Source: Lytechinus pictus (lineage: Eukaryota). Taken from it: a stretch of 64,000 nt of DNA. Made by a program: the position numbers and the translations under genes. The notes under the pieces are model-generated. The model saw only the letters and a list, made by a program, of their open reading frames with translations, did no database searches and had not been told where the DNA came from. Below, piece after piece: positions 6,901 through 46,712 of this stretch (its first letter is position 1; the number at the start of each line of letters is the position of its first letter). Where the stretch lies: contig NC_087250.1 of assembly GCF_037042905.1 (NCBI RefSeq), positions 23,500,001 through 23,564,000 on the forward strand. The letters are read 5' to 3'.

Positions 6901-7505
6901 AAGTAGTAGTCTACCCCAGAAAAATGTTTTTTTTTAATCAATAGAGAAAAATCAAGCAAGCATAACACTGAAAATTTTATCAAAGTCAGATGGAAAATAA
7001 GAAAGTTATGACATTTTTAAGTGTTGCTTATTTTTCCCAAATCGGTTCTTTATGCTCAACTCAGTGATATGCAAATGAGAGAGTTGATGATGTCACTCAC
7101 TCACTATTTCTTTTGTTTTTTATTGTTTGAAATATACAATATTTCATTTTTTATGGTTTTGACAATAATGACCATCGTGTTTGAACCACAAAATGTTAAA
7201 GCAATCAAATTCCACATGTTAAGGGAGGAATTAAACTTTGCTCACATGACAATGAGGAGAAAATTCAAATATTTCATATTTCATATAATAAACTACAAAA
7301 GAAATAGTGAGTGGTTGATGTCATCGGTCCCCTCATTTGCCTACTGACCATGATGTGCATATAAACTGTTGGTGAAATTTAACAAAACTTCAAAATGTCA
7401 TAACTTTCTTATTTTAGATCCGATTTTGATGAAATTTACAGTGTTATGCTTCTTTGACTTTTCTTTCTTATTCAAATCAAATTTTTGTTGGGGTGGACTT
7501 GTCCT
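6901..7505. mobile_element. Family A TTAA MITE, inverted relative to the 21540 copy
   Basis: Shares the internal sequence; ends GGACTTGTCCT-TTAA; left end degenerate. Confidence 0.8.
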
Positions 7506-9935
7506 TTAACAAAACCTCAGACTTGTAAGGATAAGTAAAAGTATCTGACTCAAGATAATGATGATAGTGAACCTGGAGTGGCAATGGAATGTTTTTGTTT
7601 TCATTTCAAAACTACACAGAGCCAACAGGGGGAGGCGAGGCGGTAATGACCGAGATTTATTTCTGAGCAAGCACCACAATCCGTCAAGTTACTGAAGTCT
7701 GGACTTTCTCCAAAAGTTTGGAGGAATAAAATGCAAGTAAAGAATTTTGGGAAGAAATGTAGTAAAAACGTCCTCTGACATGAGATATGGGCCTGGTATG
7801 AAGATTTGTGGTTATTTTGTGGAAGGAATGTAGGTAAAAGGTTTTGAAACCATCAATGTTGGAGGTAATCACATGATACAATAATTACTCAATTTGTGTC
7901 TGTGAAGCTTTCATCGATTGAAATAATAATTGTGGATTGTAAATTGAATATTGTTATGGGGACTGTGGTGGATGTCTATTTAAATTCAAATAAACTGGAT
8001 CTAATTTCCTGTGAGAAAAATTAATGTTTTACATGCACATTAAATTGTGTATCTATAGGAAGAAAGGCATACAGGTAGGGAGAAATAGTGCTTGATTGCT
8101 CTGAATTTTCTATCATTATCTCCCCCCACCCCCCCCCCCCAATCTCTCTCTCCCTCATCCCTCATCCCCCATAACCTTACTTAACCTAATTTCTCTCATG
8201 TCTCTTCTTTTGTCCCCATTAACTATTCATCAAATCAACGTCAATTTCACCTCGGAATATGTGGGATTTTACGTTTATGGGAACAATCTAACACAAGCAT
8301 GGACTCACTGTTTTTACCAATTCCATCAATACACTAAACAAGAGAACTGTCAAATCTCTACTCCCAACTCCATGGTCAAATCTACATCTGCACACTGATA
8401 CTGTATCTGGCTCAATACAGGTTTTATAATGCAGTAAAGAAGAAATTCATTATTCATGATATTTGAAACATTTTCAAATTTGATTTTTGTGCTCTAATAA
8501 ACCTTGTTTATCTATCATCACGTCCATGAGAAGTGAGTGAAGAATTCATCACATTTGTTATTTCTTTCTGATTTAGTGACAATAAAAACTTGCTTTGGTT
8601 TTTTTCTGGTACTTTCAAGAATGAACATTGATGATTATCATGAGATTTAGGCCCTTATGTATTACTGAAAACATTGGTAATTATTATCAGAAGTCATACA
8701 ATTTTTTTTACTTTTTTGTGCATAAAAAATAACACAAGTTTGAATATATCATACAATTATTCATTCATTAATTTTTTTTAATAGCAGAGATTACTCAATT
8801 GCAGTGAATTAAATATTTTGGCAAAAAAAAATAGTATTTTGTATTCAGACCAATATACATGAAAACTGTGCTGCTAAAATGTGAAAAGAAATTCGAGTAT
8901 ACAGGGAATAATTTTCCTGGTATCGCATCGCAATTTGCTCCACAATTTTTTTTTATGCTATGCATAAAGTCTTTTGTATCTAGCATATTTTTACATAGGA
9001 CTGTACATTACTTAGTTGAGAGCTTTTCTCTTATGACTAAAAATGCTATTCAAATTTGTAAAGCAAAATTATTCCCAGGTATATTACCTTTATTTTTCTA
9101 TTCATCATGTATTTAGCTGTTACAGTACATCTATGAGAGAAACCTGCCATTTCCAATACTCCCCTTTGGGCTGTAATGATATCACCCACCACAACAAACT
9201 CTTGCTTTCCAAACATTCGTCTACATAGCTCATCTTCCCTAGGAAAACTAAGGAAGAAACCTAAAGCTCCTCTAAATTCCTTCCACCTTCTCAAACAAGA
9301 AGTCGAGAGCGAGGATTACATTAATACGACATCTGCCGGGCAAATGTTCGCAGCGGCATCGCCTATCGCTGGGACATTTGTCAGTAGGTTAGAGACCCAG
9401 CGACCGCTAGGGCAAGCTGGTAGTGTAGTCTAGAGTCAGGTCCTGTCGCTGTCTGGAGTTGAACTTGGCCCAGCGGGTGGCCCATTAGTGGAGACCATGG
9501 TTGATTCTCTACAGGTTTCTGCGGATGTGGATTACGGGTCTACAAGGATCGGGTCTCATTGAATTGTACATGTGGGACTAACACTTGTCTGCCATAATAG
9601 TATTTACACCTATATGATGTATTGTATAGGCCTATACATGTCAGGCTTTTTCTGTAGGATTTGTAGTCAACTGGATGCAATTACTGTGTTATGTATTACC
9701 ATACATTTATTACTCATTACAATGAACTGAAGTAGCATTAAATACCTCAATAAAAATAAAATGCCATTGTTCTCAGTTGGTCATGATGTAACATAAATTG
9801 AAGAAAAGTGTAACTTTTAGTACATACATTGTATATAACAATTGACTTCTCTCCATTTCCTTTTTCAAAAAGCAGTGTCAACAACTTACAAGTAGGTTCT
9901 TCATCACTCAATGATTTGAAATGTCAATTTTCTAA

Positions 9936-12022: not shown

Positions 12023-14086
12023 CAAAGTCATGTTCACAGTGCAAGTACACCAAAGTACACTCAGCTCTGTCCAATAAATATATAACAATAATCCCCAATA
12101 ATATTAAAATTAATGTCCCCCTGACAAGTATTTATAAACACCCTTTTCATCTCCAAAACATTGCATATTTTTTTAAACCATGGGGAGAGGGCCAGCCACC
12201 CACAATGGGATCCAAGTACAATCTATATTATGAGGTCACGAAGGTCAGAAATCAACAAATTCCATGACAAATGACTTACAAAAGGTTTATGCAAACGCAG
12301 GTTTATCAAAATAGTAATTCACTTCGAGAGAAGCAAACCACAAATCCTGATTGAATAACTTTTGGGGGATTCAAATAGCATTTGATAGACCCCAAAATAG
12401 TCAAAGTATTGGAGGAAACTCAAGAAATTCTTTTTATCAAAATTGGTAAAAATATATAAAAAAGCATTTAAAAATACTTTAAATATTCATAAATAAACAT
12501 AAGTTTATGATTTATAAAATAGGATTCAACATTAATAATGAACAATTTCAGTTTTCACTTCATATTATGAAAATTCATGTCAGAACTGAGCAGAAAGAAC
12601 TAAATGAATTTTGAAGAAAAAAAAAGTAAACTTTCATTTATAATCAATCTTGATTTGTTTTATCTAGGACTATACCGATTTTGCACAAATAATACTAGTA
12701 CATCCATAATGTGGGATAAATCCTAAATTTCATCAGTCTTACAAAAATACAAATTCATACTGCAAGTCTGCAACAATTATCAAATTACACAATAGTTATT
12801 AAATCTAGATTGTACAAAAATTAATGATAAAAAATAATTGGAAAATATTGCAAAAATATTACAAACAATTAACAATGTCTAATGAATAATGGCCCTATTC
12901 AAATTACAACAAAATACAGATTAAAATGTCTTAGTAATTTAAGATGATTATCACAAAAGGCATTTCGTATTCAAGAAGAAATACAAAGACCCAATTGAGA
13001 GTTTGAGAATAGTTATCTCGGGAGCTCATTAAAATTCAGTCGAATACAACGGACTCGGATCAGACTCTCCACGGAAAGAAAGGGGTTCATTAATCCTTAT
13101 AATCGCCCACTATCATAACAAATGCCATTGTTTCCCCTACTCTATTAGTAAGGTATCCATTCCCTATAGAACCTGTATAATGCGCTACTCTATCGCCTAT
13201 TTTATCGAACAAAACAGCCTTTGGAATTGGTTATTGAGAGGAGAGAAAGTGGGGAAGAGCGAGAGAGAGTGATGAAGAAAATCGAATCGCATTAGCCGGG
13301 ATACAGCCGTCGGGGTTCGCCGGGGTCAACGAAGCGAATAACTCGTTGGCAATTTTAGCGGCTTGTGGGCAACGCAGCTGTGTGGAGTTTCGACCCAGTG
13401 CAAGTTGAAGCGATGCGGGCCGGAACAAAAACAGTAATGAACTCGTTATAATAGGGGCTTTTTTAAAGAGGTTTTGGGCCGACTAACTTGAATAGTAAGT
13501 GCAGATTAGTTAGAATAACAAAGGAAGATCTAAACTATGGCATCAAGATGAGTAATATAGCTGTCAAAAAGAGATGAAAGAGCGACCTGACTCGCAAAAA
13601 CTTTGGAGTCGTTAAAACCGCGATTACGTCCATGTGGTCGTAAAGAGAAGATCAACATAATGGTGGAAGCAATACAAAGCATTGGCACTTCCGATTGCCG
13701 TAAAAGTGTAATTCAGAGAACAGATTTCGAATCAAAAAGACACATCAATATTGGTCAAAACCCATGCATGTTTAGTCATGATTTCATAAATATCCAAACA
13801 AGAAACAAACTGACGTACATTTCGATTTATCCACAACAATCAAAATGTTTGTGGGTATCAATTTATATTGAAACTTAATGAAAGACCACTACAACTTTTC
13901 AAACAAGTAATGAATTCCTTTTAGTTTTTACAAGTGGTCTAAAAACACCAAGAGTGAAGCCAGAAAACTTTCAGACTGAGCTGAGAACTTATAAAGTTAT
14001 ACAGAACTTCACAAACCAAAGTAATAACGTCAGACATAAAACAAACAGTCTCTAACAAACTGAAACTTGAAATAAAATGAACTTAC

Positions 14087-14247
14087 TTAGAGTTGTTTTT
14101 GTCCCAAGCAATCGGCTGTAGAGTTTTAGCCAGGGTGACGCTCCAAAGTAAAAGCAAAGCGTTCACAAAAAATATGATTCCAGATTTAGCCTTGGGTAAC
14201 GCCATTGGACTTGGCCAGCTGAATTTAGTCCTGGAAAGTTGAGACAT
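14087..14247 (-). CDS. Efn: Ephrin, first coding exon (signal peptide plus start of the ephrin receptor-binding domain); later exons lie beyond the window start
   Basis: Translates (MSQLSRTKFSWPSP)MALPKAKSGIIFFVNALLLLWSVTLAKTLQPIAWDKNNS-K: a hydrophobic signal peptide followed by a motif like ephrin-B KNLEPVSWSSLNPK / VLEPIYWNSSNSK. The exon ends AA|GTAAGT (donor 14086-14081), phase 2 in the Lys codon, matching the ephrin exon-1 boundary as I recall it. Alternative ATG at 14205. Confidence 0.8.
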
Positions 14248-14599: not shown

Positions 14600-15000
14600 C
14601 GATGTGTAACAGAGTGCAGATGTGGTATTTCCGTAGTATATTATCAGAATGTAGGTTGAGAGGGAGCCGCCAGTATGTTAACCCGAGAGAGCATGCATAG
14701 CATACGCGAATATACAACGTTGGCCGAGTATCTCGTAACCAACGGATAAATTCTGGCGGTGCGGTGGGGATTCGCGATCGCTTGCAGTGTCGCCATGCAG
14801 CGGGATTTCGTCACCGTGCTAGCCGCGAGATGGATCGGGGAGCAACTTATCTCATGAATAATTCATGAGTTACGGTTGAGTGGGAGGGCTTCGAAGAAAT
14901 TTGGAGCACTTTGATTCGTCATCCATCCCGAAGAAGGGTGGAGTCTTGACACTAATTATCTTTCGGCACAGAGGGCGCTTGACCACATACGACTTGGATG
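14600..15000 (-). promoter_or_regulatory. Probable ephrin promoter/5' region
   Basis: CpG-rich stretch just upstream of exon 1; palindrome CTCATGAAT-A-ATTCATGAG (14851-14869); GC-box-like GGGAGGGC and GGGTGGAG motifs. Confidence 0.45.
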
Positions 15001-15443
15001 TTCAACAATGACTGTCGAAAATAATTGCGCAAGAAATAGGAACATTTCGAAATAAAATTACAACTGTTTGCCAAGAGAATGAATTCTACAAAATTGAAAA
15101 CTTTACGAAATAATAGCAGACCGCTCTATTCGTCAGACTTACTTTCAAAGTAAAGTGATGGGAGTCTGTACCTTTTCTGAATTTGAATTTAGGGGTAAAA
15201 TTGTTTTATGACGGACAATGTATTTTTTACTGTTCTAACTTTCATTTTCATGTTCAATTAGTAAATTTTTCACTATCTTCGAACAGTGAATCAGAACCTA
15301 CATCAGGCATTGACTTTCCCCCGTGCAATAAACAAAATGTATCAGTTTTTAATTTGTTTAAATGATTCAAATCTCATAATCTATCGACGATTAGGAATGG
15401 GGCACACACCAGCGATCTATCCCACAATAAATGTTATTTATTG

Positions 15444-15626
15444 AGGAGGGCATTGTGGCGTGCGCCTGTAATCCAAGCTATGTGGGGAAGTTACAAATTG
15501 ATGCAGAGGTTCGAGCCCTGGTCACGTCTTTCGGATGATGACGTTAACGGTCGGTCCCAGACGTAAATAATCATATCTGATTGATACAAGTCTGACAAAA
15601 CTCAAATACACACACACACACACACA
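15444..15626 (+). mobile_element. SINE-like element with 7SL/Alu-like head, B-box, Deu-domain-like core and (CA)n tail
   Basis: Head GGGCATTGTGGCGTGCGCCTGTAATCCAAGCTA (15448-15480); B-box GGTTCGAGCC (15508-15517); core GTCTTTCGGATGATGACGTTAA; CA repeat tail; TTATTG direct repeats on both sides. Confidence 0.65.
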
Positions 15627-16321
15627 TTATTGGCAGAGGGGGGGGGGGGCTTATTATTTTATAAACATTTTCGTTGATTACCATTTATCCTTAATTTTAC
15701 AAGGTGAGTCAGTTGCATGTATATTATTGTGAACGTGAAGCGCGAACGGATGTGTTTTTAATAATGACCTAAAAAAAACCGGGGTATTTTAGACACAGTT
15801 TGAAATCATTAGCAGGATTCGTATCTCCTAAAAAAATGAAAGCGCATCATTTTTTATTTGTAAAGGGGGCTTTCTGAGGACATATTTCTTGGATTTCATG
15901 AACAAGACACGTATTTCACTCACTAATAATAAGTGCATGCCGTAAGTTTGTTTTTGAGACCTGCAAATGTGATACTCTAGGGGCCTGTCTTAATTATTAC
16001 TTATCGAACTAAACAATAATAATGAGAGCACGAATATCGAACTAAAAATGTTTATAAACTGATCTGAAAAGGGAACGTTGAAGTCATAAACACTATACCG
16101 CATCTCTTAATAATACGAATGCAAGGATACACGGGTTGTTCCTAATATATAATAAAAGAAAGTGAAGCATTTTATCAGTTTACGGTAGAATGTTCATGAT
16201 AACACAAACCTTCTTTCAACATACCAGATATTTCATATTGGAAATTGTTAAAGAAATGGAAAGAACATTTTCAGTTTTCCAAGTAGATCCTAATATGGTA
16301 TTATTTTATTGGTAAAGTTCG

Positions 16322-20610: not shown

Positions 20611-21539
20611 ATGTGAGCATAGGTACTTAAGTATAAAGTATTACTATAAGTCACGCTTAATGGTATTAACACATGTATTATTGAAAAATAACTATCTGAA
20701 AAATAGCATGATGTCATAAGCATGGGGAGTATTATCAAAAGGGAAAGTCTGAGACAATGTTTGCAAATGAGATCTAATGATACCAACAAACAATTCTTCC
20801 AACACAAACTATCCTTCTAGCAGCTATGTTGAATTTTCTTCTCAACATAGCTGTTTGTTATCCATCCAACAAACTATATTAAATATATTTTTATGGTTTC
20901 AGAGGTTTTCTTTTAGTAAATATTATCAGTGGTAGGGATTTATGTCATGAGAGGGGGTCTGAAAGAGCATTAAAGGTCCCTTTGGTGTGTTTCAACCTAG
21001 GATGTATAATTTAAAACATTTTGGGATTCAATTTCCATCTGCTTTTAATGACATTTCAGAGGTTTTTTTTATTAGGAAATAGTATACATCCCTTTTGTGC
21101 AACCACAATGCATCATTTCAACCTTCCAACATATTGTTACTCTTCAACAATTTAAAAAAATTAGCTAGAAAATGAGCTATCAATACACTATAAAACTAGT
21201 ACTGGCAATACAACAATGTTACATAATCATTAGATCATTAAAAAAATGCCTTATAATAATAATTGTAATAAGAATTCTGCTTTCGCATGGCATGACACAT
21301 ATCTTTAACAATTTATCTACTGTAAAAAATGAAACAATATCAAGTTTTATCTAATTTACAGCAGATTTTGGCAAAGAAAAGGTGGGCTGGAAATCAAAAA
21401 GTCCAAATGCTATAAATATTTATGAAAGTGAAATGAAAAAAAAAGTTTCATGATAAGACTAAGGCAATTTATGGCAATGATATTAATAATGTCACATTTC
21501 TGGTTATGGCAAGAAGATACCAATAGCATGTTAGGTTAA

Positions 21540-22137
21540 AGGACAAGTCCATCCCAACAAAAAATTGATTTGAACATAAAGAAAAAATCAAACAAGGATA
21601 ACACTGAAAATTTCATCAAAATCGGAAGTAAAATAAGAAAGTTATAACATTTTTAAGTTTTGCTTAATTTCACAAAACAGTTATATGCACATCCTGGCGG
21701 CATGCAAATGAGGAGACTGATGACGTCATCCACTCACTATTTCTTTTGTATTTCATTATGTGAAATATGAAATATTCTAATTTTCTCCTCATTGTTAAGT
21801 GAAACAAAGATTAATTCCTCCCTGAACATGTGGAATTACATTGTTTTATCATTTTATGGTTCAGTCAAGTTGGTCTTTATTGTCAAATCTGTAAAAAATT
21901 AAATATTGTATAATTCAAACAATAAAAAAAAAATAGTGAGTGAGGGACATCATCGATTGTCTCATTTGCATGTCACTGAGTTGTACATAATCACTGTTTT
22001 GTGAAAAATAGGCAAAATTTTAAAATGTCATAACTTTCTTATTTTACATCCGATTTTGATGAAACTTTCAGTAATATGCTAGTTTGAATTTTCTCTATTT
22101 ATTCAAATCAACATTTTTCTGGGGTGGACTTGACCTT
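21540..22137. mobile_element. Kolobok/T2-like TTAA MITE, full copy (family A)
   Basis: TTAA-AGGACAAGTCCA...TGGACTTGACCT-(T)TTAA; long imperfect inverted arms; other copies at 6901, 22713, 39750 and 46099. Confidence 0.85.
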
Positions 22138-22712
22138 TTAAAGGGATTGAGAAAATTTGTAGAGGTTTACAATAATCTGGGTAGTGGGGCCCTACATATT
22201 GTCAGTCCAAGCAATGTTTAAAAACGAAACCATGTAAAAATCACTTAATATATAAAGCATCATTACATGCTTGGCTACAAGTAAAATTAAACAATTATTT
22301 TCCATCATTAGCCTACATGGATGCTTCAGATGGTAGCCATCATTATCGCAGAAATTAAGCGACTGATAAGCTTAAAAATCCCAGGTGATTCCTGTTTGAA
22401 CTAAAGGTTTGCAATAATTAAAGCATTAATTGCATGAGAAAAAAAAAAGGATTTAGATCCTAAATGATGTTAAACAATCACTTTAAAAGGAAAATTGGTC
22501 TCCCATTGGGGGTAGTTTGCACAAACTCTTTCGCTCGAGGAAAGAGGTCTGAATATGCAGTCTAAAGCCTCTCCTTTTAGAAAGAAAATTGAAAGTAAAA
22601 CAAGTTGTATTTGTGCGAGTCTTGTCGCAACACCCACTTATTGATGTTTTAATCAGGGTCTATGCCTGTACCAATGCAATTTCACAAAACAGCAATATAT
22701 GCTTAATGCTCA

Positions 22713-23183
22713 ATGCTTAATTTCACAAAACAGTTGTATGCACATCCTGGTTGGCATGCAAATGAGGTGAGTGATGACATCATCCACTATTTCTTTTGTA
22801 TTTTATTATATTAATATAAAATATTCTAATTTTCTCCTCATTGTCAAGTGATACAATTAATTCCTCCCTAAACATGTGGAATTTATATTGTTTAATAATA
22901 TATGGTCAGTCAAGTTGGTCTTTATTGTCAAATCTATAAAAAATGAAATATTGTATAATTCAAACAATAAAAACAAAAGAAATAGTGAGTGAGAGACATC
23001 ATCGACTGTCTAATTTGCATGCCAATGAGTTGTGCATATCACTGTTTGTGAAAAATAAGCGAAAATTTAAAATGTCATAACTTTCTTATTTTACATCCGA
23101 TTTTGATGAAATTTTCAGCACTATGCTAGTTTGATTTTTCTCTATTTATTCAGATCAGCATTTTCCTGGGGTGGACTTGACCT
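22713..23183. mobile_element. Family A TTAA MITE, left end missing
   Basis: Collinear with 21660-22137; ends GGACTTGACCT-TTAA. Confidence 0.8.
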
Positions 23184-23672
23184 TTAATTTTGATTTTGAC
23201 CAATCAATAGCATGAATTTGGAACTTGTATTCAATTGTTTTAAAAAAGCATTTCAAACAAAACTCTTCTTGGTACAGGCACCTGGAAACAAGTTTTAAAA
23301 CCACCAAGTCAAAGTACCTAGAGGTATATACTGGTATGGATACAATTTAATGCATGTCAAAGGTGCAATTGGGTAATTTCTTAGGTGGAATTTTGTAGTA
23401 CTATTGATGCTAACAGTTATAGTGAGTACGTATCATAATCAGCTCCCTCATTTGTGTACAACCCACGATGTGTATATCACTGTTTTTTTTAATAAACAAA
23501 TATAACAAATTTACATCATAATGTTCTAATTTTACATCAATATCGATGACTTTTTCAGTGTTATGCATGTTTGAGTTGTCTCTCTTCATGTCTTTATTTT
23601 AATCTACTTTTGTTCAAGGGATTTGAATTCGATTTAAATGAGGGAGAGATAGGGTAACTCTGACATAGTAAA

Positions 23673-24220: not shown

Positions 24221-24835
24221 CTACGAAAGGAAAAAGAGAGGATCATAATAATGCTGAGATCACTAAAATTGCCTGTGAATACAGATTTTGTTAAACTCCC
24301 ATAGAAAATTGAATGGACGGATGACTTTTCCCATGACTAGTGATCCTTCTTATGCTAAATGATTTATCCCTGTGTAGCCAAGGGTGGAAATCTCTCCCCA
24401 CAGGTAGGGGGACCATGGGCAGGAAAATTTGACAAGGGAAAAAAAAAAAAAAAAAAAGGTTATCACCCAAGAAAGTAAGGTCATCTCTTCCAAAATACAT
24501 GTTTTATTTCGATATTGAATGATGTGTTTCTTTCCATCATAAAAGACCAAAAATAGTAGGGGGGACATTTGATATTGTGTCACTGTCCCCCCTGAGATTT
24601 CCACCCATGTGTGTAGCTGACTAAGCACTTTTGCTCCAGTCATGCATAAATTGGTGTGTAACTTTACAAACAGCGCTATATGTATGTACCCCACCCTTGA
24701 TCCAGTAAGCAAAACAGTAACAACAGGGATAGAGTCCAAGCCAGCCTGAAAGCAAGATTTTGCCGGCCGAGGCCAAGCCTTTGGGAGGTTTTCACCAGTA
24801 GCCTTGTGGCTCACAACTACCAGCCTTGACTACGT

Positions 24836-25138
24836 GGAGCGTTGTGGCCCTGAGGATTAGTCTCCGGACTTTGAAACAGAGGGTCGTGGGTTCGAATCGG
24901 AATCCCAGCCATGGTGTAATTTCCTTCGGCAAGAAATTCATCCACATTGTGCTGCACTCGACCCAGGTGAGGTGAATGGGTACCCGGTAGGAAGAAATTC
25001 CTCGAATGCTCGAGCGCCCGATCAAGGTATCCGTGCTAAAGCAGGGGTAATAATAATAGCAGGGCCCGCTGGGAGAACAGTTTTCGGAACGGAAGTGGTA
25101 CCCTGGGTAAATAAGCCGTTATTATTGTTATTATCATT
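24836..25138 (+). mobile_element. tRNA-derived SINE in a zinc-finger gene intron
   Basis: tRNA-like head with GGTTCGAATC B-box; central CACTCGACCCAGGTG...AATGGGTACC; (TTA)-rich tail; ACTACGT/ACTACAT TSD. Confidence 0.8.
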
Positions 25139-25881
25139 ACTACATCCCTGATTAATAAGCCCTGACATAGCATTCATCCTTACTGCATGTCAAAATTGCA
25201 AATGGTAAATGACAAAAAGAAATGAATGATTTCATTACAATCATTATCATCATTAATCGATAGCAGTGGCACAACGAGCCAAAAAATTTAAGGGGGCCAG
25301 ATATGGCATGTTGTGCAAAAATTAATATGTTTTTAAAATTAAAATCCAATTTAATGATAAATTTTGACATAATATTCAGAAAATAATATATTCCCCATCC
25401 TCTCTTTCCTTTTCTCTCTGTTTTCCTTGGTTGTAAAAAATTGTGGGTGGGGCAAGTGCTCACCCCCCCCCCCCCCATCTGTACAACACTGGTCAATAGG
25501 TTACCATGCTCTAGGATTGAGCTTAATCGAGAATCAATTTGGCAAGTAATTTAAATATGCAAGAAAAAAAATTAAAGCTAGTAATTTCATTCTAAATGGA
25601 ATCTTTCTGCATTATGTCCTTAACTGTCTGTCAAATTGAGCATGTTTATTTTCATTTCCAGCTAGTAGTGTCCTAAATTTCCCAAGACATCAAATGGTTT
25701 GAGCAATCAATAAACCTGATGAATAGAATTTCAAAGAATAGTATTCTCAGGTCTAATGATTTTATACTGAACTTGCCATAGCTGTTATTCAAACAAGCAT
25801 GCTCATTTTAAAACTAGTATATACTCCTTGCAGGGACTGAGCAGTCAACAGACAAGAAGGAGCGCAAAGAACAGTATTCAC

Positions 25882-26232: not shown

Positions 26233-26746
26233 CTGTGAGAGTGTAAATAAAATAGAAAATCAATGAAAACATCCCAATCAAAATGTTATTAAAATGCAAT
26301 AATTGCTCTGGAAATGCCTTTATAATGGAATAACGATAAGAAAATAGAGGGAAAGTAGTAGAAGTGACAGAAAAAGTGGTAGTAGTCATACACAATCACT
26401 ATAATATCGACACCATAAATAGGGTGCAATATTGCATATCGGGGCATTTGATCAATGAAGTAATGATCTCATACCATTTTTTCAGATCAGAACAGAGATG
26501 GAAGAATAACATTTTAGGAGCGCTGAATTAAAACCCTGCTTTAGCAGGGCTATATACCCTGAAGCTCAAGCACACAAAGAATTCCTTTCTGGGTAGAGAG
26601 TAGAAAATGTTGAGAAACACCTTGATAAAGACTCAAGTGCTGGAGTGAGATGTGAACCATGGACCTTGTGGTCCAAAGTTTAGTGACTGAGCCACAACAC
26701 CTTTACATTGTTATGATTGGAATGAATAAATGAAGAATCATTTTAC

Positions 26747-29254
26747 CTGTATGTTGTCTCATATGATCCATGAGGTAGGTATTGAGTCTGGTTTCAAAGC
26801 CACAGTAGTGACACTTGTAAGGTTTGATCTCCGGGTGTGTCTTCAGGTGGGCTTTGAACCGGTACTGGAACATGAATACTGCAGGACAGATGGGACAGGC
26901 AAAAGGCGTAGGCCGCTGAGTATGCTTCTTCAAGACATGGTTCTTACACTCCGTCTTGGAGAAGAAGCGATGTCCACAGTGCTGACACAAGACTGACTTC
27001 TGCTTGAGGTGCTTCCGCTTCTTATGATTTTGCAGAGTGTTCCGTCTGCGGCACTTGTAATCACATTCATCGCAGCTGAACATCTTGTCGCTGTGGACCT
27101 TACGGTGCATCCTCAGGTTGATGGGACGCTTGAAGGCCATGCCACAATCCTCGCAGAGGTAATCCCGTTCTTCCTTGTGGATCGGCAGGTGGCAGTTCAG
27201 GCTATTGGCATCACGGAAGGCCAAAGGGCACTGGTCGCACTTGTAGGGGCGCTCTTCCGAATGACAACGGAGGTGGCGGCGAAAGTGCGAGAAGCGACCA
27301 ACGATGACCTTGCCACACACGCCACAGGTAAACTCTCCGGACATCTTTTCAAAGTTATGTGCACTCTTCATGTGGCTGTTCAAAAGATGGCTAGAATGGC
27401 AACTGAAATTACAGATACTACAGCGATACACCCGATTGGTGTCCAAGTCCTTCTTCTTCCCTTTGGTTTTAGGCTCTTTGGTTTTCTGTGTTGATTTGTC
27501 ACTATGCAAATGATCAATATGAGAAGCAAGAGTTTTTCGACTTTGGCAAGTGTAGCTGCAATAGTTGCAGCGGAATCCCTTCGAGTTCGGCAAGCTAGTC
27601 ATATGCTCATCTGGCTTATGGAGCTCTATTGCAGAACAGTCTTTGGAAGTGATCTGAGAAACATCAAACACATCATCATTACCATCCACCTCCCTCCCGC
27701 TATCAATTCCTTCACCATCACTAGAGCTCATCTCTGCTGCCTCTGGTACCCAATCCTCATCCTCATTTTCTTTTTGCTCTTCCAATTCATCCTCTGAAGG
27801 CAGTTTATTCCAAGAAGGTTTTCTCTTACATCTAGAAACATTTTTCCTTTGATCATCCTCTTTTTTCAAAAGTCTTCTTCTTGGTTTGGATAGGCTCACT
27901 TTTTGTTGTGATTTGCAAGAATCCAAGACATTTTGTCTCAAACTTCTTCGAGGAAGTGGCTTTCCCTTATCAACAGTTTCACCGCAAAGTTTCAGTTTAT
28001 TCTTTTTCGGGTGGGCTCTCTTTAACTCCGAATCCTTCCCACTCTTTGTATGAACAAGTTTAACATGAACTTTCAAATCTTTCATGAGCTTAAACAGCAA
28101 ATTACACTCTGGGCATGTGTACTTTGGCTTCTCCAAACTAGCCTTAGTCCTCCCTCGGAACCTACAAACTTTTTGTCTGCTTTGTTTTGATGATGGGTTC
28201 TCCTTGCTCTGCGGCACAACAATTTTCAAAGGAGGGACTAACTTTCGCCTTCTACGTCTTCCAAACCCAGAACCTGAATTGGTGGTTCCTTCATTCTCAG
28301 ATTCAGCATCTGACCTATGTTCTTGAGTTCTTACTGCTTTTGTTGCTCCATCTGCTTTGTCTAAATCATTTTCAAAGACATTGTCCATTGTTGAGGATTC
28401 ATGAACATACGCTTCTCTAGGATCGACCTCATTATGGGTAAACCTTTCTTTTGATGAAGATGACGATTGTGGCATCTCGTCCTCTGCTGGTTGAGTCTTA
28501 CTGAATGCTGACGGATGGATAACAAAATGAAAAAGTGGTCGGTTGCTTTTCTTCCCTCTCAACATCTGTGTTTTTCCTGGCTTCTCGAAATGATTTGTAT
28601 CTCTACTTTGAGATGTATAAGTCTTTGTGGTTGCATCAACAGCACAACTGATCCTTTCTTTTTCCTGGACCGAATCGTGTCTCCTGTAATTATTAGGACC
28701 ATTAGCCGTAGAATAATTACCAGAAGATTTCCTAAATTGTTGTTCACTCTCACCACCAGTATCAATATATCCACTGTCTTCTGTTCTTGGATGAATCCTT
28801 GAGCCAGCACAATCCTGATCAACACCAATCCTGGTACTTATGTCTGCACTGTCTTCTATCGCTGTGGACATCACAGCCTGTGATTCTTGACTGCATCCTA
28901 CTTCAAACTGACCATCCCCAACCCCTTGCCCCACAACGCTGAGATCAATTCCCGCAGCATATATCCCAAGAAGGTCCTCTGCAGCCAGAGCACTGGCCCT
29001 TGGTGTGACCACCCGCTCTGTTTTTCTGCCCTGGTGTCCTATGCCTGGAGCATCAACGTGACCACCTGTCCTGCAGGCTTCCTCTACAGAGTTCTGGTTG
29101 GAAGTGCTGCTTGGGTCTTGAAGGTGGTGATGATGATGGTGGTGGTGGGTGTTTTCAGGAGACGAGAGGAGGAGTCGAGAGGCATCGTTAAGGGCAGAGT
29201 CAACAAGAGCTTGGAGGGCAGCATGGTCATCACTTGCAACATGGTTGCTCATTC
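26747..29254 (-). CDS. C2H2 zinc-finger protein, coding exon 2 (10 fingers, poly-His, acidic and basic tracts)
   Basis: Acceptor TGTGTAG|GA at 29255; 2508-nt open frame (phase 1 to phase 1); ten CxxC...HxxxH/HxxxxH units with SEERPY-type linkers; ends HTG at donor AG|GTAAAA. Confidence 0.95.
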
Positions 29255-29800
29255 CTACACAGAGAAAAGAAAAGAAAAAAAAAATCTCTGAATGAATGAT
29301 TTTAATTTCCATGCATGCACCTGTTTGAAAAAGTGGGAATCATATCATATGCATACAATGACAAGCTGCTTCATAAAAAAATTCTCGATATACTTGTACA
29401 TCACAAGGAACAATAAATTAAATTTATATGTATACAATGACTTCTGTCCCAGTGACCCCATTATCTGCTCAGATCATCTCTGCTCCCATACGCGATCCCA
29501 CGACATCTGCTCTGGCGACAATTGCTCCAATGGAAAATCTGCACGTTAAGCCAAACATAAAACTTAACCTCTAAAACTAAATAAAACTCCAATCCTTTTC
29601 TTTACATTTTTCTGAACCAAAACCTCTACTACAAGATTAACTCTAACCCTGTGCTATGCCCCCTGAGATATTAAGACTGGAGCAAATGTCGCAGGAGCAA
29701 ATGTCGTGTCACCCCATATGCACGCTTGTTCAGTTGGGCCAAGCTTGAAGTTGACCCTCAATTCAAACAGTTCATAATCACAAGAAATAGCCTTAACAAG

Positions 29801-30070
29801 CCAACCAGTGTGTTGACTCATTTGGTAGAGCATCCGTCTCACAACCAGGAGGTCGGGGGTTCAAACCCCGGCCGCATCAGAACAAAAGACATTAAAAGAT
29901 GGGAGTTGCTGCTACCCCGTTTGGCGTTCAACAATTCAAGGGATAGAGCTAAATTGATCTTGCGCTGCACAGTGGCTGCCGGGCCCACAATCAATTGGGC
30001 AAAAAGAATTTTTGGAGTATTTCTATTTTTAGATTTCAATTCAATCATAAAATATGGATTAAAAAAAAAA
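29801..30070 (+). mobile_element. tRNA-derived SINE (second family)
   Basis: A-box-like TGACTCATTTGGTAGAGC, B-box GGTTCAAACCC, non-tRNA body, poly-A tail. Confidence 0.75.
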
Positions 30071-32923: not shown

Positions 32924-35900
32924 ATCATCATCATCATCATCATCATCTGCTGTAATCTTCAAAGGGCTCTGCAGCCTATCACGAAGATGAACTGAAACTT
33001 GGACGCACGTTATGAGGAGGAGTGAGGAATATTTTCAAGCTGATTTTGCAGAAGTTTTTGAAAGCTGTCAAGCGAGACTGCATTAACTATTTGGAAAGGG
33101 AGTTTATTCCATTCAGGTACAGATCGTTGGGCAAAGGCAAATTTGTCAATATTGCCTCTTGGACGATATGTCTGAAAACACTTGTTGTGATTTTTCCTAG
33201 TGACAGTGGTGCTTAAGGAGAAGAATTTGTCTTGGGGTATTGCAGCAAGGTCATTTACAATCCTATACACCATGCTGAGTCTGCTTACAGTGCGTCGAGA
33301 AGACAGACTAGGCCACTTCAGCTTGGTGAGCATGCTGGTTACGCTGCTGGTTCTACTGTAATCAGCTAAGACATAGCGAGCCGCTTGCCTTTGGATTCTT
33401 TCCAAATTCTGTGTGTCCATGATAGAGTGAGGATCCCAAACACTGCAGCAGTACTCTAAGTGAGGGCGTATAAGGGACTTGTATGCTGCCTCTCTGAATG
33501 ATTGGGGTAGAAACCTTGTATTACGCCTGACAAAGCCTAGTTGTTGGGTAGCTTTCTTGCAGATCATTGAGATATGGGTTGACCATTTGAAGTCGTTGGA
33601 TAGGGTAATTCCGAGATATTTTCCACTCTTGCAAAATTGAAGAGCAGTGTTGTGGATGTAGTAACTGTAGTTCACTGAAGACCGAGAAGGGCAGTACCTC
33701 AGAACAAAGCATTTTCCAGGGTTGAATGACATTAGCCAGGTGTTTTCCCACTTCTGGAGTGCATCAAGATCTTTCTGTAACATCCGAGCATCATAACTGC
33801 TTGAGATTTCTCGATACAACATGCAATCGTCGGCAAAGAGCCGGGTTGCTGATGAAACTTGTTGGGGAAGATCATTAACATACAGCAGAAAGAGTGTGGG
33901 GCCGAGGACAGTCCCCTGGGGGACGCCCGATGCAACGATACATGCTTTAGATGTTACGCCTTCAAGAACTACCGACTGCTCACGATCAGTTAAAAAGCTC
34001 TGTATCCACTTGAGGTTGCGATCTTGGATCCCATAATGTCTCAACTTCAGGATGAGGCGGTTATGTGGGACCTTGTCAAAGGCTTTGCTAAAGTCCAGCA
34101 TAATCATATCAACTTGCTTTTTACTCTTGTACGATTCAGCAAGGTCATGGGATGTTAGCAATAGTTGAGTCTCACAAGAGTGTTTTCTTCTAAATCCATG
34201 TTGGCAGGGGGACAAGATGGAGTGAGAGTCAAGGTGCTTCATCACTGACGACACAACTATGTGCTCCAGTGTCTTGGAGATTATACTGGTTAAAGAGATA
34301 GGACGGTAATTTTCAGCTAACGTCTTGTCGCCTTTCTTGAAGACCGGAGCTATATGCGCTTTTTTCCAATCCTTTGGAAGAACTCCAGATTTCAATGATT
34401 GGTTGAAGATGAAGGTGAGAATAGGACTTACTTCTGAGGCCGTCTCTTTCAAAAGGATGGCTGGGATGTTATCCGGACCAGTGGCTTTGGATGCGTCTAG
34501 TCCCCTCAGAAGCTTCTCAACACCATTGACATGGACTGAAATGTCTTCCATTGATGGATATCGAGAAGGAAGGATGTTAGGCAGAAGGACATTGTCCGGT
34601 TCTGTAGTGAAAACCGATTCAAACTGACGACTAAGGATGTCTGCCTTTTCTTGGCTGCAAGATTTCAGGCATCCTTCAGAAAGGAGTTGCTGAATACCTG
34701 TGGAGTCTTGCCTAAGTCTTTTAACATATTGATAAAAGGCTTTTGGTTTTTCTCTTAGGCTTGGACCAATGACGTCATTAAGGTACTCCCATCTCGCGGA
34801 GCGAAGGGACTTCTGAACCTGGGATCTCAACTTCCTGAAGAGGCTCCAATCTTCCTGAGATTGACTTTTGAGAGCACGGTTATATACACGATGCTTCTGT
34901 CTGATCTTGCTCTTAATTTCCCTAGTGATGTAAGGCAGGTTGAATCTAGTACTGCTCATCTTACTAGGGATATACTTCTCTTTTAGGTATGTCAATTTAC
35001 ATTTCAATGATTCCCACTTCAAATTGACAGACTTGGTACCAGGACTGTTGATGAAGAATTCTTCAGAAAAGGACCAAAGCTCAGTTCTGATCTTATCAAA
35101 GTTTGCCTTCTTATAATTGTAGACTCTGTGAGCTTTACTTTTTTTATGTTTGACAGTACCAGTGAAGTCAATCTGAACAATAGAATCATGATCGCTGATC
35201 CCTGGAATCGGCTTAACAGAGTCAATCAATGTAGGATTAGTAGTAAATAAGAGATCTAGCATATTCTGTTGTCTCGTTGGGAAGTTCACGACCTGTTGGA
35301 GATTATGGTGGCTAGCAATATCAAGAAGAAGGGTGCATGGTTGGGTACTACTTTTGTAGACTCTTGCAGGGCAAGGCTTGACTGAATCAGAGTCCCAATC
35401 AATGTCCGGCATGTTAAAATCACCAGCAAGTACCTTGTAAGCATCAGGAGGAAGTTTACTCAAGGAAACTTCAAGCCCAGGGAGGCCATTGGGATCATTA
35501 TAATGGGGGTTGTAAAACACTCCGAGATATACATCTTTCTGGCCATGGGACCTCAGCTTAGTCCAAAGTACTTCGCAATCAGCGTCATATTCAGGAAGAG
35601 CTACTGCGAGCAGCGTTTTCCTAACTGCAATGAGGACACCTCCATGACCATCATTGCGGTCTTTCCGCCATATGTCATACGTATCAAGATGTGTTAGAAA
35701 AAGCTCCGAGTTAGAAATAGTATCATTTCCCCAAGTTTCAGTTCCAAATATTATATCTGGATGAACAGAATTTATAAGATTGGATAGGGATTCGACTTTG
35801 CTTCTGAGACCTTGGAAATTGATGACTACAGCTCTCAGTTTCCTATTAGTATTAGTATTACCAGATTGCGGGGACTTCTTACGAGAAGGTGAAGGTTTGT

Positions 35901-36156
35901 CACCACTCGTATTCGTTGGTGAGGACATAGCAATTGGTGCGAAGAAGGGAGACTTGTCCTCAAGTAGAGAGGAAAAACTGTTCGAACATTCAATCTCAGA
36001 GGAGCTATCGAATAAGGACGATGCAAAATTTGGCATGCCGCACGAATAGCAGATCCAACTAACATTCGATGCCTGAAGGGCTTCATACGACGGTGTGTGC
36101 ATATTCAGACATTTTACATGGTACCAAATATCACAAGAATCACAGCATATACCACC
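32924..36156 (-). mobile_element. CR1-group non-LTR retrotransposon, 5'-truncated, ORF2 uninterrupted
   Basis: Frame is open from about 36159 to 33010. Short 3' UTR followed by a (GAT)8 tail at 32947-32924. The 5' end falls inside a PHD finger (GICCDSCDIWYHVKC). No TSD seen. Confidence 0.93.
33010..36102 (-). CDS. LINE ORF2: partial PHD finger, APE endonuclease, reverse transcriptase (1030 aa)
   Basis: EN motifs GTETW, GDFN, SDH; RT motifs NYRPISLTS, QHGFR, DFSKAFD, GVPQGTVLGP, FADD, KYLG. Confidence 0.95.
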   Translation of the reverse strand: MHTPSYEALQASNVSWICYSCGMPNFASSLFDSSSEIECSNSFSSLLEDKSPFFAPIAMSSPTNTSGDKPSPSRKKSPQSGNTNTNRKLRAVVINFQGLRSKVESLSNLINSVHPDIIFGTETWGNDTISNSELFLTHLDTYDIWRKDRNDGHGGVLIAVRKTLLAVALPEYDADCEVLWTKLRSHGQKDVYLGVFYNPHYNDPNGLPGLEVSLSKLPPDAYKVLAGDFNMPDIDWDSDSVKPCPARVYKSSTQPCTLLLDIASHHNLQQVVNFPTRQQNMLDLLFTTNPTLIDSVKPIPGISDHDSIVQIDFTGTVKHKKSKAHRVYNYKKANFDKIRTELWSFSEEFFINSPGTKSVNLKWESLKCKLTYLKEKYIPSKMSSTRFNLPYITREIKSKIRQKHRVYNRALKSQSQEDWSLFRKLRSQVQKSLRSARWEYLNDVIGPSLREKPKAFYQYVKRLRQDSTGIQQLLSEGCLKSCSQEKADILSRQFESVFTTEPDNVLLPNILPSRYPSMEDISVHVNGVEKLLRGLDASKATGPDNIPAILLKETASEVSPILTFIFNQSLKSGVLPKDWKKAHIAPVFKKGDKTLAENYRPISLTSIISKTLEHIVVSSVMKHLDSHSILSPCQHGFRRKHSCETQLLLTSHDLAESYKSKKQVDMIMLDFSKAFDKVPHNRLILKLRHYGIQDRNLKWIQSFLTDREQSVVLEGVTSKACIVASGVPQGTVLGPTLFLLYVNDLPQQVSSATRLFADDCMLYREISSSYDARMLQKDLDALQKWENTWLMSFNPGKCFVLRYCPSRSSVNYSYYIHNTALQFCKSGKYLGITLSNDFKWSTHISMICKKATQQLGFVRRNTRFLPQSFREAAYKSLIRPHLEYCCSVWDPHSIMDTQNLERIQRQAARYVLADYSRTSSVTSMLTKLKWPSLSSRRTVSRLSMVYRIVNDLAAIPQDKFFSLSTTVTRKNHNKCFQTYRPRGNIDKFAFAQRSVPEWNKLPFQIVNAVSLDSFQKLLQNQLENIPHSSS

Positions 36157-37118
36157 AATTTAGTTAAAAAGTTGTGGAATTGAAGGGGCAGGAGTTTAAT
36201 GAACACCTCAAGTTAATTTGGGGAAAATAAAGATCTGTTGGACAAGTTTTGGTGGGGGGGGGGGGGGAGATTTAAAGCCTCCATTTCTAAACGCACGTAG
36301 TGACGTAAAGATGAAAGATTTTCAAGTTCAAATTGTCTAGATAATTGTCAATTACCAGAAGTAGCTAGGGCCTATAAAACTTAATTTAAAGACCGGGAAA
36401 TCTACAGATCAAAGTCCTTCATTTCTGTACCTGATGTGATAATTTCATTTTATAGGCTTGTTATGAAAATAAATTAAGTCTATATCTTTTATCGATAGTC
36501 ACAATGCAAATAATCAAAATATTATAATATTCCTAGAATCCTAGTCCTACACTTTTTTTACAATTTAAATCAGAATGTATTCTGCCCCCGTCCCAAGGCA
36601 AGACATGTTGAATGTTCTATCTATCTCTTCCCTCAAATTTGACACTCTTGAGTCTGGGGCTAGTAATCCTATTCCTTGCTTCTTTTGCATCCATGAATAA
36701 TATATTTTTCCTTATTTGAGATTGGGTTATATATCAGTCCACAAAGAACTTTTAAAAGCTAAGCTCTATATACACATAGACCTACATCCATTCTTTTCTG
36801 CTCAGAGTCAAACTTACACGCACACATATCCACACACCACATCCGAGAAACGAACGTGTATTTTCAATATGCCACTACCAGGCACGGTAATGTCACATTA
36901 ACGTTATAACAAAGGCCAACCCTTCCACACACGGCCTATGTAAAAACAACCCATGTTAACCGTACACCCAAAATACAGTGATGCGACGAGCAAGACCTCG
37001 TCAAAATGGACGAGATAACATTACCAAAAATCATCCATTATAAAGATTCATACTTCATCGAAATAAAGTAATGTAAGACATAAAATGTTCAAACACCAGA
37101 GAGGTTAGATTTACTTAC

Positions 37119-40299: not shown

Positions 40300-43200
40300 T
40301 CTTTATTAAATGATAAAGACAAATGCCAGTTGTGGTAACGATTTCAAAATGAGTTCAAACAGAATCTAAGAAAATGACCAACCATGCATTTATTTCGATA
40401 TTGTTCTTCCAACTAACGGGTAAACAGGCATATATATGCTTGATTTTTTCAACATCATTTGCATCTAAATTCAAATCAAGAAAATGTGTATCACATTTTA
40501 GTTTACCATTATTATCAAAAATATGATGCAATTTATAAACCTCTTTATCGTATAGAATCTTATCAAATATACAACTCCCTTTATATCGAATAAGCTTATT
40601 ATTAAAAATCACCACTTTCCCAAACTCTGTACTTCTAATATGTCTTATATTTACCCACTCTTCTAATAAGTCCATGTAAAATTTGGAAGCTGTTACTTTC
40701 AATAAACCTGGTATATAGTCACATGAAAATATAAAATCTCCACCCAAATGTTTAGTGGCAAAATTAAAGTACTGTTTCCATTTCATATCTTCATCTTTAT
40801 TTAAAAGTCTTTTAATCCACATTATTCGCTGTGCCTTTACCTGCACAGGGAAGTTTAACATCTTTAATCCTCCTTGCTTATAGTCTAAAAACATTGTATT
40901 CCTATTAATTTTGTCTTTCTTACCTTTCCATAAGAAATCAAAAGTTAATTCATCCAATGATTCATAAACCCACTTAGGAACAGGAGTAAGAGACGCTCGA
41001 TAGAGGACTTTAGAATAGATATGCACCTTTAATAGTTGAATCTTCCCCATAAGCGTTATATCCCTTAGCTTCCAAAAGTTCAAGAGTGTTTTAATTTTGC
41101 TTAAGATATCTTTGTAATTTAGATCTTCTTTCTTATGTTCATCTAGGGTGAAAAATACTCCTAAAACTTTAAGAAAATCAACGATCTCGCCGAAGGAGAA
41201 GTCACAATCCAAATGCTGACATGAGCCTAATTTTAATACTTTAGTTTTTTCATTATTGATTTTTAATCCAGAAAGTTTTTCAAAATCTGCAAATAAAACT
41301 TTTAGTCTATCAACTGATTTTACATTACGAGCAAAAACTGTCATATCATCTGCATAAAGTGCTAATTTAATTTCTTTATCTCCAAATTTAATTCCTTCAA
41401 TCAGATTATCTTTCCGTAATTTATGAGCCATTACTTCAATACACAAAATAAAAAGGTAAGGACTAAGAGGATCCCCTTGCCTCACCCCCCTTTTTATTTC
41501 AAAATAACCGGTGGAATTTCCTTCATTTAAAACACAACTTAGAGTATCAGTATACAAAACTTTGACCCATCTCTGAAAGGATATACCAAAACCAAAAGCC
41601 GTCAGAGCCTTTTGAAGAAAATGATGTGATAACGAGTTAAAGGCCTTCTCAAAATCTATAGCTAACAAAAAAACAGGTAGATTAAAATGGGATGTAGGTC
41701 CATTCCATTTCTAATGTTAATTAATGCACATGCCTTACCTGTTGCTCTGCTAGACAAATGTCACTCAAGCTCTTTATATATACATGTACCAATATTACGT
41801 AATTGCGACCAGTTTACTCTGTTATTCAAATGAACTTATCTTCTAATGCCTACATTTCTTCTCCCTCTTCTCCATCTGTGTTTCTTTTTCTACTCTTAAC
41901 TTTCTTATTTATATGCAATTACATATGATGTCATTACAGTACGTAACTTGTTATTTATTTGTATCTGGCGACCCCAACTCAAGCTCTGCTTTCCGGGTTT
42001 TCGCCTCCTTCAAAATTGTGTCGAAATATATACTGTATTCGTTACTATGTCAAATATTATTTTGTATCTGTTTGAAGGAAATAAATGTGATTTTCAATCA
42101 ATCAATCAATGTATGAAAAATAACATCATCTATAGTACGAATGGCTTCACCAATACTTATACCTTGTATGTAACCCACCTGATCCCCCACAACGATTTCA
42201 TTAAGTATTTTCTTGATTCGCTTAGCCAAAATTTTTGTTAAAATTTTATAATCCACGTTAAGAAGGGATATAGGTCTATAATTTTTCAATAAAAGAGGAT
42301 CTTTTCCATCTTTAGCGATTAACGTAATAACTGCTTGTTTTTGCGACGATGCTAATTCCCCGGACCAATATGCCTCATTTAAGGCATCTTTAACTAAATC
42401 TCCAATATCCGGCCAAAAAGTATAGTAGAACTCCGAAGAAAGACCGTCATTTCCAGGTTATTTATTATGTTTCAATTCTTTTAAAATTTCTAGACATTCT
42501 TTGTTACTTATTAACCCTTCACAGAGTTCTCGAGATGTCTCCGCCAATTTAGGTAATCCTTGAAAAAATTCATCAAAGAGGTTATCCGAACACACGCACT
42601 CTACTTTATCATACAACCTACTGTAAAATTTCCCAATTTCTTCACTTATTCTTTTTTCATCACAACAGATGTTTCCATCTGTGGTTTTAATTTTTTTAAT
42701 TGTGGTTTTTCTTTTATTACTTTGCATCAACTGGTTGAAATAACGCGAGTCTCTTTCACCACATTCATACCAGGAGGCACGAGATCAAACCTTAACACCT
42801 TCATTAACATAACTATAAATTTCCCTTAATTTCTCTTTTGTATTTTCTAGTTTTTCTAAAGTATTTGCATCAGTACGATCTTTCAATTGTTCTTCTAAAA
42901 ACTGTATTTCTCTTTCTAAATCCGTTTTCATTTTCCTTCTTTTATCAGCCAATTTTTTCGAAAATTTTTGTGTAAAACTTCGAATTTTCATTTTTAGAAA
43001 ATCCCATAACAACCTCTTATCTTTTATTTCAGATTGCAATTCATTTCTCAATTCACGAATTTCTTTCTTTAATTCTTTAACATAATCTTCATTTTCACAT
43101 AAACTATTATTGAATTTCCAATATGACCTCTTCCTTGCATTAACTTTATTTTTGTTTTGTCGAATAAGTGTACAAAAATTGAATGATGATCAGGGGCCAC

Positions 43201-44200
43201 AGATGGAATTATATCGCACTTTATAACCATTTCCTCTAAACATTCAGAAATTATCCAGTAATCAAGTCTGCTTTGCATGAAGGGGTTCTTTTGCGTGTAT
43301 GTAAATTGTCTTTTCAGGGGATGTCTACATCTCCAAACGTCAAAAAATTCAAAGTCTTCCATAAATTTTCCAAAGTCTCGATTGAATCTATTTGAAATCC
43401 TATTTTGAGATTGTCCGTTATAATCTAAATTATTGTCCCTAATCATGTTAAAATCACCACCTATTATAACAGGGTATTTATCTTTATTCAACTTAGCAAG
43501 GGTATTTCGTATTTTTTGAGAAATTGCAATTGTTCTTTTTCAAAATTTCTTGTAGGGGAATATACATTTCATAAAATCAACCTAACCCCTTGAAACTTAC
43601 AATCTATAAATATAAATCTACCCTCATTGTCTCTTAAGACTTGTAATATCTCCATATCTACCGTTGGCGCAATTAAAACTAATACACCCTTGCTTTGAGC
43701 TGAACCATGACTAAAATAACTGGTGCCGTCCCACGACGATACCATCTATCCTCACATTCCCTAGTACTAAAGGTTTCTTGCAAAAAGACAATATCGGCCC
43801 CTTTATCTTTACACCAAAAAAAGATACGGTCTCTTTTATCACTATCTCTAATTCCTTTCACATTGAGGGAGATCAATTTACAACTAATCTGGAGACTCAT
43901 AAAAAATCTGATACAAAACAAATAGCCTAACACCGGAGCCAATCCCCCACCCAAGGGGATCCCATAAATTAGAGCCCCCGTCCCCTCCCATCCCAGACCC
44001 CCCCAAAACCCAGGGTTACTCCGAAGAGTAAACTTCATGCTATGAGCAAGAGGCAAAGGGGGAACGTCCATGACTATCGTAGGCAAAACCCCCTCCTCCG
44101 ACAATGAAAGAAGACAAAAATAAATAAATAAATAAAATTGATATAATAAGCACTCTAAATTACAGGGATCCAAACAAATTCGGACGGACTACAACCCCAG
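40300..44200 (-). mobile_element. Decayed L1/Tx1-clade LINE (ORF2 from ATG 43900, several frameshifts, 3' part truncated)
   Basis: EN fragments LISLNVKGIRD, VFLQETFST, IIGGDFN, SRLDYW, APDHH; RT fragments YRPISLLNVDYKIL, IDFEKAF, GVRQGDPLSP, YADD, GGLKM, spread over several frames. Ends approximate. Confidence 0.9.
41697..42108 (+). mobile_element. 3' end of a LINE (L2/Crack-like) nested antisense in the L1/Tx1 RT domain
   Basis: Stem-loop-like GGCGACCCC...GGGTTTTCGCC, then AATAAA and a (TCAA)4 tail; flanked by ATGTA direct repeats (41692-41696, 42109-42113). Confidence 0.75.
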
Positions 44201-46098: not shown

Positions 46099-46712
46099 AG
46101 GTCAAGTCCACCCCAGGAAAAATGTTGAATTGAATAAATAGAGTAAAATCATACAAACATAACACTGAAAATTTGATCAAAATCGGATGTGAAATAAGAA
46201 AGTTAACCGGAGAAGTTATGACATTTTGAATTTTCGCTTATTTTTCACAAAACAGTTATATGCACAACCGAGTGGCATGCAAATGAGAGAGTCGATGATG
46301 TCCATCACTCACTATTTCTTTTTTTTTTATTGTTTGAATTATACAATATTTCCATTTTTACCAATTTGACATCATGGACCAACTGAGCTGATCCATAAAA
46401 TGTTATAACAGTGGTAATGTCACATGTTCAGAGAGGATTAAAACTTTGTCTCGCAGGACAATGAGGAGAATTTAGAATAATTCATATTTCATTTAATAAA
46501 ATACAAAAGAAATAGTGAGTGAGTGATGTCTTCAGTCTCATCATTTACATACCGACCGGGATGTGCATATAACTTTTGTGAAAGTAAGTGAAACTTTAAA
46601 TAAAATGCCATAACTTTCTTATTTTACATCCGATTTTGATGAAATTTTCAACGTTATGCTTGTTAGATTTTTAAAAATTCAAATCAACTTGTTATTGGAG
46701 TGGACTTGTCCT
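46099..46712. mobile_element. Family A TTAA MITE, full copy
   Basis: TTAA-AGGTCAAGTCCACCCC...GTGGACTTGTCCT-TTGA. Confidence 0.85.

Follow-up and report, generated by a model that had tools for sequence, protein, structure and literature searches.

A sea urchin SINE that joins a 7SL-like head to a tRNA-type B box and a short Deu-like body, and its probable membership of a chimeric family

SINEs derived from 7SL RNA are listed only from supraprimates, hagfish and the shrew mole in the parts of two recent accounts that were available (PMC13023118, 2026; PMC10886601, 2024), and the former describes all the known examples as joining both ends of 7SL. In the accessible text of two other sources, 7SL is mentioned in general terms only, or not for invertebrates (PMC11481361, PMC4758252). 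Across the literature searched, which consisted of listings and the beginnings of abstracts and stopped short of subscription papers, figures and the entries of Repbase, Dfam and SINEBase, there was no 7SL SINE from an invertebrate. The element described here occupies 183 bp (15444–15626) of a 64-kb stretch of DNA, hereafter the window, from the sea urchin Lytechinus pictus, and all of its predicted parts lie at their predicted places. The original prediction, made from the sequence alone, was of an independently evolved family with a 7SL head and a Deu core. It named primates, rodents, tree shrews and hagfish as the known hosts of 7SL-derived SINEs, a list to which the shrew mole has to be added (Urop, PMC13023118).

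The hagfish element SINE1-1_EBu (Eptatretus burgeri; Kojima, 2020, PMC7245038, as far as its text was available) is like the urchin element in having a 7SL head grafted on an older tRNA-SINE and a microsatellite tail other than poly(A), and the two are identical at 25 of 27 nt at the 5' end (hagfish positions 4–30, by hand count), including an exact run of 20 nt. It differs in containing both 5' (96 nt) and 3' parts of 7SL with a 7SL B box, whereas the urchin element has about 43 nt from the 5' end only and a tRNA-type B box; and it ends in a bipartite RTE tail and (AAC)n between target-site duplications (TSDs) of about 17 bp, the counterparts in the urchin element being (CA)n, after a Deu-like remnant, and a TSD of 6 bp. 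In the Euarchontoglires (Alu, FLAM, B1 and Tu) and in the shrew mole (Urop), the RNA of 7SL-derived SINEs likewise begins with a 5' Alu domain that has a U-turn and loop-loop pairs, but none of their other hallmarks (a central deletion of about 183 nt that joins both 7SL ends, poly(A) and L1) was seen in the urchin element; for the tree-shrew Tu, the same partly available source also mentions a dual 7SL/tRNA unit (PMC13023118).

The body recalls a different group. DeuSINEs (AmnSINE1, SINE3-1, the sea urchin SINE2-3_SP and BivaDeu-SINE1) share with it the start of the Deu/Nin domain, and head swapping on a shared body has been described within this superfamily; their heads, however, are derived from tRNA or 5S, and no published domain is shorter than about 70 bp, whereas the match in the urchin element covers 35–50 nt (PMC4824008, in the portion available, with the sequence of SINE2-3_SP lying outside the comparison). 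A further parallel is artificial. SA46, an engineered 46-nt minimal Alu domain (Moldovan et al., PMC11760393, part text), comprises approximately the same stretch of 7SL without its 3' strand, and in HeLa cells this 5' domain bound SRP9/14 and supported 86% of full Alu retrotransposition. As its authors point out, SA46 has no B box of its own and depends on an external promoter (PMC11760393); it retains 7SL positions 1–3, which are replaced in the urchin element, where the B box is supplied by the fused part, and its tests used human L1 and poly(A).

The SINE lies between exact copies of TTATTG (15438–15443 and 15627–15632), just as predicted, and this is the longest exact repeat flanking it. 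With equal tolerance, a flanking 6-mer repeat was found at 190 of 20,000 random position pairs, or about 1%, and one matching the real left flank at 693 of 63,800 right-hand positions. The unit has the usual marks of a SINE, being short, non-coding, flanked by a TSD (a single one, of 6 bp) and provided with a simple-repeat 3' tail, and it is the only copy of its kind in the window. The 5' flank together with the left TSD (15422–15446) forms an imperfect palindrome of 25 nt (80%), possibly a feature of the target site.

The nearest gene start, an ATG at 14205 on the minus strand, is about 1.24 kb from the SINE and directed away from it. The corresponding first exon (14086–14205, minus strand) is of signal-peptide type and is the sole exon of that gene inside the window. 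It had been labelled ephrin, presumably on a likeness to ephrin N-termini, but with no matches for this exon in Pfam or the PDB the label could not be confirmed. Between this exon and the SINE is a perfect 9-bp inverted repeat with a 1-nt centre (14851–14869, found by eye), a candidate promoter element. Elsewhere in the window, an ORF (26703–29339) encodes a protein identical over residues 560–870 (100%) to an L. pictus zinc finger protein 814-like, which identifies the host as a sea urchin, and a MITE-like family of self-complementary repeats of about 600 bp, 78–89% alike, is represented at 6908–7510, 21535–22138, 22714–23187 and 46095–46717.

The head opens with a leader of four unrelated bases (15444–15447) in place of 7SL positions 1–3; these do not align to the first three positions of the Rfam model, and the further copy P0052 (see below) is compatible with the window sequence down to 15445. 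From 15448 to 15490 the sequence corresponds to the 5' Alu domain of 7SL/SRP RNA. When 91 nt of the 5' end were compared with 4,227 Rfam families, Metazoa_SRP (RF00017) had the best E-value of three matches (15.2 bits, E 0.015), in an alignment cut at the 3' end. The posterior was at or near its top over the first 35 nt or so and low after about model position 40. Against the Rfam consensus there are 28 identities in 32 positions (model 4–35) and one inserted base by hand count; the predicted figure of 29 of 33 referred to a different 7SL/Alu reference sequence. The score of 15.2 bits is far under the gathering score of 70, the match is absent from an Rfam scan of 701 nt, and at gathering level Rfam gave no matches across the window.

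There was no tRNA among the three Rfam matches to the head, and ARAGORN found no tRNA genes. The missing tRNA match is in itself weak evidence, because, of two ordinary SINE heads of the window put through the 91-nt test as controls, only one gave a tRNA match; neither gave SRP. Taken together, these sequence comparisons support the view that the head fits SRP RNA, unlike tRNA. The Rfam scans also gave a weak match of the head to mir-1268, which we take to be Alu-derived. We attribute to chance two snoRNA matches in the 701-nt scan (E 0.47 and 8).

At sequence level the head retains the U-turn triad (7SL positions 4, 23 and 24) and the three loop-loop pseudoknot pairs named in PMC12265939, both of which are tied to SRP9/14 binding in the available part of that paper. 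Helices 3 and 4 can form, with the helix-3 pair list matching the Rfam register in five of eight pairs, and the stretch includes a putative A box that agrees at 7 of 10 positions with the human 7SL A box printed in PMC7245038 (hand count). The closing helix 2, helix 5 and the 3' strand of 7SL are absent. As a whole the head folds no better than its shuffles (z +0.7 to +1.3), and the Alu-like fold competes with others (pair probabilities 0.4–0.5). The element is not a plain 7SL retrocopy, because it lacks the S domain and continues into an unrelated body and tail. A 5' part homologous to 7SL RNA makes it a SINE1 by its head. It has neither the full Alu domain, with both 7SL ends joined, of the Alu/B1/Urop/Ebu1-1 type nor the wholly tRNA-derived head of a SINE2, tRNA likeness being confined to the B-box half; as judged from its sequence, then, it is a SINE1 outside that structural type.

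A spacer of uncertain origin follows (15491–15507), with low posterior in the Rfam alignment and alignment gaps, and shorter than in the copies P0051 and P0052. The Pol III B box had been predicted, and a motif scan places one of tRNA type at 15508–15518, within a T-arm-like hairpin (15508–15524) that is common to the tRNA-headed copies P0053 and P0054. Beyond it, the Deu/Nin-like core remnant (15525–15559) begins with an exact run of 14 nt shared with the start of the AmnSINE1 Deu domain (PMC7245038, Fig. S4; hand count) and continues with a looser match to about 15559; other copies differ from the window at 15538, which reduces the exact run to 13 nt. This stretch also aligns in 31 of 40 columns with a Deu-type SINE from a metagenome assembly (L005), itself chosen through that motif. 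The likeness to the predicted Deu core is limited to the first 35–50 nt. Since published invertebrate Deu/Nin domains are of 70–120 bp, we regard it as a remnant and the element as no more than a possible member of the DeuSINEs.

The 3' part contains a stem-loop (15558–15594; −9.6 kcal/mol, z −3.23, none of 200 shuffles equally stable) which is the best of eight regions folded, the only one to beat its shuffles, and a probable recognition signal for a LINE. It leads into an A-rich linker and the predicted (CA)n tail (15595–15626, with the CA run itself at 15608–15626), which is one of two such runs in the window. This arrangement suggests a LINE that selects its RNA by the hairpin. There is no T4 run within the SINE; the first one downstream (15657–15660) could serve as a Pol III terminator in the flank.

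The suggestion that a LINE might share the 3' end of the SINE found no counterpart in the window, where comparison of the SINE tail with the LINE 3' ends gave no match (score 27, shuffles 22–33). One LINE (33010–36159, minus strand) has an open frame of 1,049 amino acids with a PHD finger, endonuclease and reverse transcriptase, looks intact, and ends in a short 3' UTR and (GAT)n; two broken ones with reverse transcriptase domains (57781–60841, plus strand, and 40355–44188, minus strand) have 3' ends unlike the SINE tail. The window also holds, on the plus strand, an ordinary tRNA-headed SINE with a Meta-type core (29800–30050; tRNA match at 29807–29879, 18.5 bits) and another SINE-like element (24830–25150), whose B box is at 24889 and which had no tRNA match in Rfam.

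DNA scans with body patterns returned no family copies from metagenomes (0), prokaryote genomes (0) or viral contigs (0 and 0). A scan with a broad Deu pattern gave nine loci, again without a family copy and with no tRNA or Rfam match at any of them: seven look like chance matches in microbial DNA, and the other two (L003 and L005) are an unrelated animal Deu-type SINE. These two, both from a metagenome assembly, are related copies; one has a (CAAT)n end, and their long head belongs neither to tRNA nor to any Rfam family. Both the metagenome pattern and the broad Deu pattern would have missed copies like those described next, because both spanned position 15538, which varies among copies.

Since repeats are often translated by mistake, predicted proteins were searched as well. 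A 34-aa antisense reading of the SINE body was used as a phmmer query against 1.84 billion proteins, giving four matches, three of them real and one (P0050) a repetitive protein without an aligned stretch, which was dropped; a second search yielded a fourth copy, and a search of longer proteins recovered only P0053 among seven candidates. The four (P0051–P0054) are single sequences on ENA contigs of 571, 11,411, 1,275 and 606 bases, respectively, with flanks unrelated to one another. They have no Pfam domain and are spurious ORFs, and within the window they match only the SINE (62–76 bits, against at most 26.5 elsewhere). The element is thus not single-copy, which would have told against a family: seen as peptides only, interspersed copies share the body in all four cases and the 7SL-like head in two.

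The evidence for the head comes from C-terminal peptides that extend beyond the query and match the antisense head at 7 of 8 residues in P0051 and 9 of 10 in P0052, agreement reached by none of 2,986 background windows in either case. Both heads depart from the window at 15452 alone; the change is towards the base of Rfam and hagfish and restores the helix-3 pair 8–19, and the window base there looks like CpG decay. At 15589 and 15602 the same two copies have a base in common that differs from the window's, as have three of the four copies at 15538 and 15548. P0053 and P0054 have in common an identical block of 55 aa between different flanks, and their B box, core and tail correspond to window positions 15507–15620. 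Neither matches the 7SL head (for P0053, 1,831 of 2,992 background windows were equally good). The peptides of these two copies instead allow a head that contains a tRNA A box; it would lie 43 nt ahead of the B box, the usual spacing in tRNA. The strict A-box motif, chosen by eye after the peptide had been seen, is passed by 40 of 2,000 shuffles, and a general one by about half. P0053 and P0054 are likely to represent a parent or sister family with a tRNA head.

The modules, their order, and two types of head on one body are what the sequences show. We put at roughly 80% the probability that the SINE is a retrotransposed copy of a chimeric family in which the 5' domain of 7SL replaced the front half of a tRNA-SINE head. 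That it belongs to a 7SL-headed family, and is not a one-off, is very likely, because two more sequences, differently flanked, show the same linkage of head and body; the predicted combination of 7SL head and Deu core is supported to that extent, with the amendments that the 7SL part is only the 5' 43 nt or so, that the B box looks tRNA-derived, and that the Deu likeness is that of a short remnant. In outline, the 5' end of 7SL RNA (about 43 nt) would have replaced the A-box half of a tRNA-derived head through template switching or recombination, as proposed for the hagfish element in the available text of PMC7245038, and the tRNA-type B box, short Deu-like body, tail hairpin and (CA)n would have been inherited from the tRNA-SINE parent. 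We infer the direction of the swap, from tRNA to 7SL head, because tRNA heads are the common state. Transcription by Pol III would be driven by the hybrid A/B promoter and stop at a T run in the flank; the reverse transcriptase of a LINE would then recognize the hairpin together with the (CA)n tail and insert the copy by target-primed reverse transcription, which would account for the 6-bp duplication.

There are about even odds that the head, like that of Alu, also binds SRP9/14 and docks the RNA on ribosomes. It is only this docking step that is contested by the most serious alternative, which accepts the same family and the same 7SL origin but sees the head as no more than the donor of an A box, with the tail hairpin alone recruiting the LINE enzyme. 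We consider this nearly as probable as its opposite. The loss of closing helix 2 and of the 3' 7SL strand, the unremarkable fold of the head, and the tail hairpin being the sole region to beat its shuffles are all in keeping with it, as is a tRNA-headed element that spreads with the same body but without the 7SL part. The intact U-turn triad and loop-loop pairs speak for docking, as does the length of the retained piece, close to that of the 46-nt domain sufficient in HeLa cells (PMC11760393, part text); but this counter-evidence is weak, because a young 7SL copy would keep such bases without selection.

The remaining alternatives contest the chimeric family itself. A rare chimeric retrocopy, made by a single switch of the reverse transcriptase between two templates, 7SL RNA and a tRNA-SINE RNA, and never amplified, would account for the single copy in 64 kb and for the spacer that differs among the window, P0051 and P0052, and comparable chimeras of small RNAs have been described (PMC7245038, in the part available); we nevertheless think it improbable, as three sequences with unrelated flanks have the same order of head, spacer end and body. 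Still less probable is an ordinary tRNA-derived Deu-SINE with a worn head that resembles 7SL by chance. The tRNA-type B box, the low SRP score and the failure of the tRNA test on one of two control heads would suit such an origin, but it leaves to coincidence the 20-nt exact run with a published 7SL-derived head, placed exactly at the 5' end, and the 28 of 32 identities with the Rfam consensus, to which the other copies are nearer still. Human Alu contamination, an assembly mis-join or an Alu fragment acquired from a vertebrate, which the weak mir-1268 match of the head might bring to mind, can be given hardly any weight, for the TSD encloses a head fused to a non-mammalian body, the urchin DNA around it is continuous, and the head-body fusion recurs on separate contigs.

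If the chimeric element does represent a sea urchin family, it would be the first invertebrate case in the literature searched, with a separate origin and a different build. We suggest, with rather less than even confidence, that it marks a SINE1 lineage of invertebrates, perhaps present in several species of sea urchin or echinoderm, which arose by swapping only the 5' Alu domain of about 45 nt onto a tRNA-SINE whose parent form survives. Such a lineage would be the equivalent in nature of the engineered SA46, and it would mean that docking on ribosomes through SRP9/14 also aids a SINE carried by a hairpin-recognizing LINE other than L1. The occurrence of 7SL-type and tRNA-type heads on one body makes them a natural pair for asking what an Alu domain adds to a SINE, and the sea urchin offers a tractable embryo model in which the two heads may be compared.
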